6,769 nt of DNA, taken from positions 1 through 6,769 of the IMG/VR virus record IMGVR_UViG_2690316121_000010; one strand, given 5' to 3'. The notes under the pieces were generated by a model. The model was not told where the DNA came from. It worked only from the letters and a program-made list of their open reading frames with translations, and searched no databases. The position numbers and the translations under genes were made by a program. The stretch is from a virus (lineage: Duplodnaviria; Heunggongvirae; Uroviricota; Caudoviricetes). This document shows, in pieces, positions 1,454 to 3,038 of the stretch (its first letter is position 1; each line of letters opens with the position of its first letter).

Positions 1454-1723
1454 TTACTTCATCCCGCCAATATTTTCCCACACCCCGTCAGCACGCAGGA
1501 TTTGCAGCGGTCTTACCACACACTGTATCTGCTTTTTATCTGCATCCAGTATCACCACCTGTGTGATTACCCTGTCCTGCTCCGGAATAATGCCATTCTC
1601 ATCTGACTCCAGAATGTCTGCCGGTCCCAGTCGCAGTTGTGCTGTAAGCGACTGCACGTGTTCACGGCCATCATGCTTTCCGCAACCACACAGACGCTGC
1701 ATAAGTTTTTTTAGTATATTCAT
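1454..1723 (-). CDS. Small hypothetical protein (89 aa) translationally coupled to the tail fibre gene; possible tail-fibre accessory protein
   Basis: ATG at 1723..1721 lies 1 nt after the stf TGA (TGAcATG) with AGGAG 6 nt upstream inside the stf 3' end; TAA stop at 1456..1454. The track's 102-aa version starts 13 codons earlier inside stf without RBS support. No resemblance to lambda Tfa as I recall it. Contains a CGCGKH motif. Its 3' third is source copy B of the direct repeat. Confidence 0.6.
   Translation of the reverse strand: MNILKKLMQRLCGCGKHDGREHVQSLTAQLRLGPADILESDENGIIPEQDRVITQVVILDADKKQIQCVVRPLQILRADGVWENIGGMK
1456..1594. repeat. Direct repeat copy B (inside the intact small ORF)
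   Basis: See copy A. Encodes ...GIIPEQDRVITQVVILDADKKQIQCVVRPLQILRADGVWENIGGMK-stop. Confidence 0.9.
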
Positions 1724-1724
1724 G

Positions 1725-3038
1725 TCATTCTCCTGTTCTGCCTGTATCACTGCCCACTTCATTCAGCCCCTTAACATCCTGCCACGGCCCGTCACCAAAC
1801 CTGACCTGCAAATGCTGAAACAGCCCCTGAACCTGTGTGGCATCTTTGGGGTCAAGAAAGGTCAGTCCGGTGATGAGTGCGCCATCTGTATCCGGGAACC
1901 AGCCATTGCTGTTTGTCTCAATAATGCTCGCCGGCCCCAGACGAAAACGGATTTGTGTCTCCCCCGGGTCGCCCTTCGGTCCCTGAGGTCCGGTTGCCCC
2001 CACCGGGCCAGCCGCACCTGTTTCTCCTTTCGGTCCCTGTGGGCCTGCCGGGCCTGCCGCACCGGTATCTCCCTTTGGACCCTGTGGACCTGCATTTCCC
2101 GTCAGACCGGTCTCTCCCCGCTCTCCCCTGTCACCTTTCGGCCCCTGCGGGCCTGCCGGACCAGCATCACCTGCCGGTCCCCGTTCGCCGGTTGCCCCGA
2201 CAGGGCCGGTGTCACCGCGCTCTCCCTTATCACCCTTCGGCCCCTGAGGACCCGCGGGCCCCTGTTCCCCCTTTGGCCCGGGAGGTCCCACCACGGTGGG
2301 GATTCGGTTTACGGCCTCTTCCGCCGCTATCCTGCTTTGTTCCGCTGACTGTGCGCTTTCTGCTGACTCCCGGGCTTTTTCTGTTGCGGTCGTTGCATCC
2401 CTGGCTGCATTACCGGCTGCACTTTCTGCCGTCTTTCTTGACAATTCAGCTTCTGCTGCACTTTGTGATGACTCACTGGCTTTTTGAGCGGCCGCAGAAG
2501 CCGAGGACGAGGACGCATCCTCTGACTGCTTTGCTGAGGCTGCACTTTCTGCCGCCTGCCGGGCTGACTCCGATGCATCCCCTGCTGAAGTGTCAGCATT
2601 TGCAGCGCTCTCTTCTGCCTGACTGGCTGATATGCCAGCATTCCTCGCGGACGTCTCCGCCTCTCCGGCATTCTTCTTCGCCTCCTCAGCGTGACGCGCC
2701 GCTTCTTCCACCATCAGTTCAAAACGACGCAGTGCCTCCGGCCGGACGTCATCCTCCGACATGGCACCGAGAAAATCATTCAGCGTCCCCGGTTGAGAAT
2801 CTTCATACACGGTGATGGTCCCGGCATGTGACGGCGGGAATCCTTCCACCAACAGAATGACGCTGTACTGACCGTACTCAACGTCCATGCTGTAACGCCC
2901 GGCTTCATCCGGATTTTCTGAGGCCACCGTGTTCACCACCACCGTGGTACTGTTACGTTTTGCTTTCAGCTGGATTGTGCAGTTCTGCACCGGTTTTCCT
3001 GTGCCGTCTTTCAGTACACCTGAAATCTTTACTGCCAT
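1725..3038 (-). CDS. stf: Side tail fibre protein, 437 aa (lambda Stf-like N-terminal domain, Ala/Ser/Glu-rich shaft, collagen-like Gly-X-Y repeats, short C-terminal domain)
   Basis: Most likely start is ATG at 3038..3036 (MAVKISGVLKDGTGKPVQNCTIQLKA...) with GGGGTGA upstream; the track's 3044 start is a GTG two codons earlier. TGA stop at 1727..1725. The first ~110 aa match the lambda Stf N-terminus as I recall it; aa ~112-245 are low-complexity A/S/E-rich; aa 251-359 are ~36 uninterrupted G-X-Y triplets. Confidence 0.88.
   Translation of the reverse strand: MAVKISGVLKDGTGKPVQNCTIQLKAKRNSTTVVVNTVASENPDEAGRYSMDVEYGQYSVILLVEGFPPSHAGTITVYEDSQPGTLNDFLGAMSEDDVRPEALRRFELMVEEAARHAEEAKKNAGEAETSARNAGISASQAEESAANADTSAGDASESARQAAESAASAKQSEDASSSSASAAAQKASESSQSAAEAELSRKTAESAAGNAARDATTATEKARESAESAQSAEQSRIAAEEAVNRIPTVVGPPGPKGEQGPAGPQGPKGDKGERGDTGPVGATGERGPAGDAGPAGPQGPKGDRGERGETGLTGNAGPQGPKGDTGAAGPAGPQGPKGETGAAGPVGATGPQGPKGDPGETQIRFRLGPASIIETNSNGWFPDTDGALITGLTFLDPKDATQVQGLFQHLQVRFGDGPWQDVKGLNEVGSDTGRTGE
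1962..2288 (-). repeat. Collagen-like Gly-X-Y triplet repeat coding region within stf
   Basis: Translation GPPGPKGEQGPAGPQGPKGDKGERGDTGPVGATGERGPAGDAGPAGPQGPKGDRGERGETGLTGNAGPQGPKGDTGAAGPAGPQGPKGETGAAGPVGATGPQGPKGDPGET; the DNA shows 9-bp-phase periodicity (ggNccNNNN). This is why several long spurious ORFs appear here in other frames and on the plus strand. Confidence 0.9.

Follow-up and report, generated by a model that had tools for sequence, protein, structure and literature searches.

The window analyzed here, 6,769 nucleotides of viral DNA (Caudoviricetes; IMG/VR virus record IMGVR_UViG_2690316121_000010, positions 1 to 6,769), carries a small open reading frame (ORF) of 89 codons directly downstream of the collagen-like side tail fiber gene stf. 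This ORF, hereafter ORF89, occupies 1454..1723 on the minus strand, as do all genes of the window (coordinates are whole-window positions throughout). ORF89 is very probably a real, translated paralog of the phage tail fiber C-terminal domain (PfC) that belongs to the fiber module. The reading favored here, held at a probability of roughly 55%, is that of an expressed, dispensable fiber accessory that also serves as a passive recombination anchor. A first-pass annotation of the window had described ORF89 as uncharacterized, a label that does not hold: the protein has a PF06820 domain, a full-length match to phrog_576 and a name given by the Prokaryotic Genome Annotation Pipeline (PGAP), and it is in print as ORF68 of phage Sp5. 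The family is thus catalogued and has been discussed since 2016, and function, not identity, is the question left. New here are the estimate of selection, the count of intact copies, the 137/140 pairing with stf, the arrangement around the homolog P0130 and the phi24B peptides.

Residues 28–89 of ORF89 (1457..1642) constitute a complete PF06820 domain (Phage_fiber_C, PfC), with the match spanning profile positions 1–64 of 64 (E 9.6e-36; 122.4 bits at a gathering cut-off of 25). The same domain forms the knob of Stf at its residues 362–425 (1761..1952; PF06820 E 1.1e-35). Because the PfC domain of ORF89 is 39% identical to this knob (residues 29–88 on Stf residues 363–424, E 1e-12), ORF89 is a free-standing paralog of the fiber's own C-terminal end. 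Its residues 1–27 (1643..1723) have no homology to Stf. The domain is thus found not at the C-terminus of a fiber protein but in a free-standing protein of 89 amino acids with its own start, a domain-only member of PF06820. In addition, ORF89 aligns end to end with phrog_576 ("tail fiber protein"; 1–89 on 1–89 of 89, E 3e-59), and the window at 1380–1800 has 100% DNA identity with the chromosome of E. coli strain CD45, whose coding sequence there is WP_001023457.1, named "phage tail fiber C-terminal domain-containing protein" by PGAP.

The first-pass annotation had suggested a profile search against tail fiber assembly and chaperone families. Scans of Pfam, PHROG and NCBIfam (E up to 0.1) returned no Tfa-type, tail fiber assembly or chaperone family, and NCBIfam matched no model; PF06820, which that annotation had missed, was matched instead. 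Its remark that ORF89 does not resemble lambda Tfa agrees with these scans. An AlphaFold2 monomer model of ORF89, built on a shallow alignment (mean predicted local distance difference test score 76), comprises a short helix at 3–12, a low-confidence, Cys/His-rich linker at 13–23 and a confident small beta domain of six strands at 30–85. The closest structural matches of the modeled domain are phage tail fibers, the best being the S protein of the Mu fiber. A sequence search of solved structures with ORF89 alone or with a 16-sequence profile had its best matches (E 0.04–0.8) in unrelated coiled coils. An anti-phage defense role was considered for ORF89 and dropped, as PADLOC defense models gave no match at E up to 0.1. 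A lipoprotein reading of the LCGC motif was also rejected: MNILKKLMQRLCGC is charged up to position 10 and has no hydrophobic core, and the model places a helix at 3–12.

The 3' end of stf reads ACA GGA GAA TGA, with the stop at 1727–1725, and is followed by a spacer C at 1724 and the ATG of ORF89 at 1723–1721, while ORF89 itself stops with TAA at 1456–1454. The ATG therefore lies 1 nt past the stf stop (TGA-c-ATG), and a GGAG (1733–1730) lies 6 nt upstream of it; together, these elements form the coupling junction at 1724..1733. The start of ORF89 1 nt after stf and the GGAG embedded in the stf end, both proposed in the first-pass annotation, are confirmed on the minus strand, and the span of 1454–1727 proposed with them was right in location, although its positions 1725–1727 are the stf stop. 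The junction is the same or nearly the same in 84 of 86 loci. It was also sought from the fiber side, in 140 distinct Stf PfC 3' ends anchored on the DNA of the Stf knob independently of ORF89, and GGAGA[AG]TGAcATGAA follows 137 of them. ORF89 is arranged for translational coupling to stf on this evidence, as had been suggested. The three exceptions (L209, L211 and L035) comprise an stf stop mutated from TGA to TGT, a GGAG that has lost 1 nt and an IS66-family element inserted exactly between stf and ORF89.

On its other side, ORF89 is followed, 15 nt past its stop, by an 11-bp hairpin with a T-run (1411..1439; −21.2 kcal/mol, z −4.1 by RNA folding). Such a hairpin lies within 70 nt of the ORF89 stop in 137 of 144 contexts and is present too at the diverged L203 locus and at the Citrobacter rodentium loci. 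It is likely an intrinsic terminator that ends the fiber module. A simple consensus terminator scan did not call it, which is probably explained by the pairing of its stem into the T-run.

The reading frame is well kept. In a sample anchored on the 22-nt junction alone, 106 of the 113 copies that could be assessed (94%) retain an unbroken 89-codon frame. Pairwise counts over 82 distinct alleles gave a ratio of nonsynonymous to synonymous polymorphism (pN/pS) of 0.19 for the whole of ORF89, 0.077 for its PfC part and 0.38 for its first 27 codons, compared with 1.8 and 1.2 in the +1 and +2 shifted frames, and these values are indicative rather than exact, as the alleles are related, recombining, drawn from E. 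coli prophage contigs and not phylogenetically independent. A first sample, selected by protein, had given 0.09 for the domain and 0.27 for the N-terminal part. The PfC domain of ORF89 is under strong purifying selection, and the frame-specific bias is clear. Taken with the junctions behind 137 of the 140 Stf ends, the intact frames and this bias exceed what chance would produce. The first-pass annotation had named a lack of conservation in related prophages as a sign of non-coding sequence; ORF89 is conserved there. The CGCGKH motif to which it had drawn attention is indeed present at residues 12–17. Among the 82 alleles, C12 is invariant, C14 is C, Y, H or R, and H22 is H, N or D; because C14 and H22 vary, the Cys/His motif is not a strict site, and a metal-binding role for it was dropped.

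A more diverged relative is P0130, a 60%-identical homolog that keeps the pattern M-x-I-x-K-K...G-C-x-K. It follows a fiber gene of which the C-terminal part available in the locus, 212 residues, is not collagen-like and ends in PfC. The ATG of P0130 overlaps the last codons of the fiber, with GGAGG upstream, and the same hairpin comes after it, followed by NleG and an NleL-like gene.

The same gene, with 89 amino acids and 92–99% protein identity, is known in Shiga toxin (Stx) phages as Sp5 ORF68, 933W L0122, VT1-Sakai H0003 and phi24B "gp59," where it stands directly after the collagen-like fiber gene with the TGA-c-ATG junction seen in the window. GenBank often gives it as an upstream-extended ORF of 130 amino acids, an extension that is not open in the window. 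Its translation is attested in phi24B. In the supplement of a 2026 preprint (bioRxiv 10.64898/2026.04.10.717836), the peptides VITQVVILDADKK and ADGTWENIGGMK, which are unique to the ORF89 homolog, are listed from a purified virion preparation. Both are assigned there to a hypothetical fusion entry of the fiber and the small ORF, annotated by the authors as "Spike or just gp59?," and what is presumably the spectral-count column gives 3 per peptide (about 6) vs. 2267 in total for the phi24B fiber. The text of the preprint neither models the gene product by cryo-electron microscopy (cryo-EM) nor mentions it. The phi24B homolog is thus translated and occurs at trace level in the purified virion preparation, as a component or a contaminant; the first-pass annotation had set a lack of ribosome or proteomic evidence as a ground against the gene, and these peptides supply such evidence.

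Two published studies bear on function. In the short-tailed Stx2 phage Sp5, Mondal et al. (2016; PMC5155283) made deletions of the late genes. Loss of the fiber gene ORF67, which is essential, abolished infectivity; ORF68, the equivalent of ORF89, is listed by them as non-essential, and its deletion was not lethal. No frameshift signal was seen at ORF68, which they suggested to be "an intragenomic reservoir sequence" for fiber variation. Ghosh et al. (2012; PMC3368898) characterized the collagen-like fibers EPclA and EPclB. The isolated PfC of EPclA is a trimer and a trimerization module, as measured by size-exclusion chromatography with multi-angle laser light scattering, and it nucleates the refolding of the collagen helix. 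The longer EPclB fiber, when made alone, aggregates via one globular domain (Ghosh et al., 2012), which is compatible with a capping role for ORF89 and does not demonstrate it.

The ORF89 locus is found in 698 of 5426 complete E. coli genomes, at a median of 12 places per genome, and in 296 phage records, including 933W (L0122), VT1-Sakai, BP-4795 and the cdtI phage. Protein searches returned E. coli, E. albertii and Citrobacter rodentium only, save one probable contaminant contig, together with many truncated and chimeric forms. Similarly, an exhaustive HMMER search of 1.84 billion representatives gave 57 proteins and no distant relatives, the 57 being fragments or chimeras of one narrow family, except for two long proteins that match weakly (E above 1e-4). 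A genome-per-species scan found E. albertii and a 725-bp contig only; this contig (L085; NZ_JPLE01000138.1, "Xanthomonas pisi DSM 18956") has a 92%-identical ORF89 copy and most likely entered the Xanthomonas assembly as contaminating E. coli phage DNA. A search with the Stf knob returned short E. coli and E. albertii fragments and no full-length fibers to compare. The tail gene block of 933W-type phages encloses the gene, with the fiber gene on one side and more tail genes on the other. Because the fiber knob of these phages is identical to that of the window Stf at 76 of 82 positions, the unit of collagen-PfC fiber, small ORF and hairpin is common to long- and short-tailed phages. In C. rodentium (L204–L207, ~4479–5237), a prophage remnant flanked by chromosomal genes, with the lymphostatin gene nearby, is reduced to a 166-amino-acid Stf without the collagen region and a frameshifted copy of the small ORF, and L204 also has an NleG gene.

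On the phage side of the effector locus in long-tailed prophages, the conserved border is ORF89, which is often a breakpoint as well. Nucleotide diversity rises from about 0.04 in ORF89 to 0.2–0.3 over the 40 nt that follow and contain the hairpin, and it exceeds 0.5 further on; homology between loci stops about 40 nt beyond the ORF89 stop. The sequence past the hairpin falls into 29 unrelated classes among 131 distinct contexts. These include NleB, NleC, NleG, an NleH-like kinase, TccP/EspF repeats, a pentapeptide NleL-like protein and insertion sequence (IS) elements, and one class consists of 933W tail genes. The earlier suggestion of a conserved junction gene for cargo exchange is apt for long-tailed prophages, but not for 933W-type phages, in which the gene is enclosed in the tail block.

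Partial copies of ORF89 mark this border further. The window segment 623–749 is 88% identical to 1468–1594 over 127 nt, corresponding to ORF89 nucleotides ~130–256, and PGAP treats it as an incomplete pseudogene of the ORF89 family. The repeat near nleG described in the first-pass annotation is thus real, although it covers the 3' half of ORF89 more nearly than the 3' third. Its presence is explained by the position of ORF89, beyond which phage sequence is no longer conserved and the variable cargo begins. As in the window, a second, truncated copy about 1 kb downstream of the full one occurs in 20 of 85 loci (L001–L085), at distances of 0.97–1.04 kb. They are of two kinds, one with ORF89 nucleotides 130–251 at about 89% identity and the other with nucleotides 153/167–269 at 82–84%. 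Loci with such second copies include L004, L006, L010, L013, L026, L047, L048, L051, L055, L056, L067, L078, L080 and L082. By their appearance, the truncated copies are scars left where cargo segments from different prophages were joined illegitimately.

Database chimeras tell of further rearrangement, with J, Lom, CII or the Stf collagen region joined to ORF89 by deletions. For instance, positions 1–291 of L208, a 3326-bp contig of GCA_038404665.1, hold a natural fusion in which the Stf collagen region runs in frame into ORF89 through a GGACCGGCAG common to both. This fusion would yield a fiber ending in an ORF89-type knob, and an NleL-like gene comes next; the contig begins within the collagen repeats, so that the 5' part of the gene falls outside it. 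L009, an IMG/VR contig of 4100 bp, has full ORF89 copies at 257–525 and 3817–4085 in inverted orientation with a third partial copy between them, and it may be a junction of two prophage ends or an assembly artifact. The role of ORF89 as border and breakpoint seems to follow from where it lies and how many copies there are, and is no evidence for a dedicated recombination function.

In the explanation that fits these results best, ORF89 is a duplicated PfC knob of Stf that stands as a small expressed gene with its own 27-residue front. It is the last cistron of a conserved module of three parts, namely, a fiber gene ending in PfC, a small PfC gene and a terminator hairpin. Judging from the order of the signals in the DNA, ribosomes that end stf at UGA most likely restart 1 nt on, aided by the GGAG in the last stf codons, and this restart would co-produce the ORF89 protein with the fiber. 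By analogy with PfC trimerization in Stf, the protein would probably be a small trimeric knob. Its most likely role is that of a dispensable accessory of the fiber, which may, for instance, transiently cap or help the distal knob; an essential chaperone or a stoichiometric tip is unlikely. Separately and passively, ORF89 acts as a homology anchor and breakpoint for the swapping of cargo and fiber segments because it is the last conserved sequence before the cargo and has about a dozen copies per genome of enterohemorrhagic E. coli (EHEC); the truncated copy at 623–749 is one trace of such an exchange. Within this explanation, the chance that ORF89 has a protein-level accessory role in the fiber is put at a little under even. 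The particular mechanism, in which ORF89 caps or assists the distal knob, is considerably more tentative, and the same low expectation attaches to an undescribed kind of accessory, derived from a duplicate of the fiber's own trimerization knob, in which free PfC trimers would dock on the Stf knob, cap it or mix with it.

Several observations weigh against this explanation. Full-length EPclA made alone in a laboratory strain trimerizes (PMC3368898), so the fiber folds without ORF89, and the report on the Sp5 ORF68 mutant places it in the non-essential class on E. coli K-12, with no more specific data (PMC5155283). The evidence from phi24B is thin, consisting of two peptides that a carried-over contaminant could have supplied. 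About 6% of the ORF89 copies are frameshifted, the copy in C. rodentium is decaying in a degraded prophage with a frameshifted N-terminus, and the pN/pS estimates carry the reservation given with them. The family is limited to Escherichia and C. rodentium. Lastly, the identity and expression of ORF89 are observed, whereas its trimerization, its contact with Stf and its effect on the fiber are what we infer.

Among the other explanations, one holds that ORF89 is mainly a stored alternative knob, now and then transferred by recombination to the end of stf, thereby changing the specificity of the fiber. This is the role put forward for Sp5 ORF68 (PMC5155283), and natural hybrids agree with it: in P0064/L208, the shared GGACCGGCAG links the Stf collagen region in frame with ORF89, and P0124 combines the N-terminal part of ORF89 with the Stf knob. 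These hybrids are, however, singletons with 1–4 member sequences. With only 39% protein identity and DNA that aligns poorly, the two knobs offer no homology for regular exchange, and the window has no invertase, reverse transcriptase or flanking inverted repeats. A pure store is also hard to square with the retained Shine-Dalgarno sequence and ATG, the purifying selection on the N-terminal part or the translation of the phi24B homolog, and such a role is accordingly considered unlikely.

A similarly small chance is given to ORF89 as a stoichiometric component of the virion, an alternate or additional fiber tip that binds the Stf end and sets receptor specificity. The gene is labeled atfT, "alternate tail fiber tip," in GenBank record KU977419 (AU5Stx1), its homolog has left peptides in purified phi24B virions, and the predicted fold of the domain is like that of tail fiber domains. 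The peptide signal is, however, very low for a stoichiometric tip (about 6 vs. 2267 for the fiber), the protein is neither modeled nor named in the phi24B cryo-EM text, and Sp5 ORF68 is listed as non-essential on K-12, although on other hosts such a tip may still play a part.

It is highly improbable that ORF89 is appended to Stf by a +1 frameshift at a weak UGA-C stop to give a fiber with two knobs. Relative to stf, the frame of ORF89 is indeed +1 in the window as well as in 933W and L203, a Shine-Dalgarno-like GGAG precedes the UGA-C, and the search database of the phi24B authors included such fusions, the hit being annotated as "Spike or just gp59?" Nevertheless, Mondal et al. found no frameshift signal (PMC5155283), and no peptide spanning the junction is among the listings in the available part of the phi24B supplement. 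Furthermore, the last stf codon, GAA, is unable to re-pair in the +1 frame, and the conserved ATG at an optimal distance from GGAG suits ordinary initiation. The overlap itself is not conserved, since the frame of ORF89, followed upstream, meets a stop after 13 codons in the window but has 46 open codons in 933W.

The function of lambda Stf depends on Tfa, and ORF89 occupies the tfa slot, directly after stf and co-translated with it, so an essential assembly chaperone of the Tfa type might be expected there. The first-pass annotation had offered a tail fiber chaperone as one possibility; as an essential Tfa-like role it is largely refuted and scarcely credible, given that ORF89 matches no Tfa or chaperone family, that Sp5 ORF68 is listed as non-essential while deletion of the fiber gene ORF67 abolishes infectivity, and that recombinant EPclA and the isolated PfC trimerize without ORF89. 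A functionless leftover of an old knob replacement, kept only by its linkage to stf and homogenized by gene conversion, would account for the frameshifted 6%, the decaying C. rodentium copy, the many truncated or chimeric forms and the listing of the Sp5 equivalent as non-essential, but it is just as improbable in view of the codon-position constraint (pN/pS 0.08 in the domain vs. above 1 in the other frames), the 94% of intact copies, the conserved start signals and the 60%-identical homolog with the same architecture.

The remaining window genes place ORF89 at the end of a prophage. The J gene is present with its 3' part (ORF listed at 3770–6724), the full gene running past the window edge, and is followed by lom (3103–3702; PF06316) and stf (1725..3035). 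The latter encodes a collagen-like side tail fiber of the EPclA type with 436 amino acids, consisting of PfN, coiled coil, collagen and PfC, with Pfam matches to PF08400 (residues 1–132), PF01391 (collagen) and PF06820 (residues 362–425); this domain order is the same as in EPclA (Ghosh et al., 2012). Beyond ORF89 and the hairpin lies an ORF of 180 amino acids (691–1233) with no function assigned, which matches phrog_6585 (E 1e-91) and no Pfam, NCBIfam or PADLOC family. PGAP gives only two pseudogene fragments in its region, and its last codons overlap the ORF89 remnant in a different frame, so the 180-amino-acid ORF may be truncated itself; the arrangement is seen again in nine distinct contexts (cluster 3). 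The remnant (623..749) holds codons ~44–85 of ORF89 and has no start codon, and nleG (1–561; PF06416), which is the cargo in this window, comes after it. In locus L001 (6043–7284), nleG is followed by nleA and then by chromosomal yegL, pphC, yegI and yegD. Because chromosomal genes come after nleG and nleA, the window lies at the end of a prophage inserted beside the ibsA–yegL region.

Every lambdoid and Stx prophage with the collagen-like fiber also has ORF89, which is among the most repeated phage sequences in EHEC and a fixed border beside swapped type III effector genes. If it modulates fiber assembly or host recognition, it would bear on the spread of Stx phages and effector-carrying phages; otherwise, it matters chiefly as an anchor for recombination and because it causes breaks in assemblies. 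Should a free PfC trimer act on the fiber, it might control the folding or aggregation of collagen fibers or provide a second receptor specificity on natural hosts rather than K-12, and the conserved ORF89 sequence would also drive the exchange of effector cargo between prophages.

Compared with known systems, ORF89 shares PF06820 with the PfC of EPclA and EPclB (Ghosh et al., 2012), from which it differs in being 39% identical, lacking an attached collagen helix and having its own 27-residue N-terminal segment. In the short-tailed Stx phages the gene lies inside the tail block, whereas no further phage gene separates it from the effector cargo in the window. Like lambda Tfa and Mu U, ORF89 holds the slot directly after a side tail fiber gene and is co-expressed with the fiber; unlike them, it is homologous to the fiber's own end and belongs to no chaperone family, and its Sp5 equivalent is listed as non-essential. 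The Mu G segment, the P1 C segment and the diversity-generating retroelement (DGR) of BPP-1 resemble the window in placing a second distal fiber segment beside the fiber gene. ORF89, in contrast to these, has the same orientation as stf and its own start codon and is translated. Among the ORFs and repeats of the window there is no invertase, reverse transcriptase or near-identical template repeat, the sole inverted repeat being a 22-nt pair at chance level. Effector cargo located downstream of lambdoid tail fiber genes was reportedly described by Tobe et al. in 2006 as "exchangeable effector loci." In the loci compared here, the cargo (NleB, NleC, NleG, NleH-like, TccP and NleL-like) begins right after ORF89 and its hairpin, which makes ORF89 the phage-side border of the effector locus and not part of the cargo.

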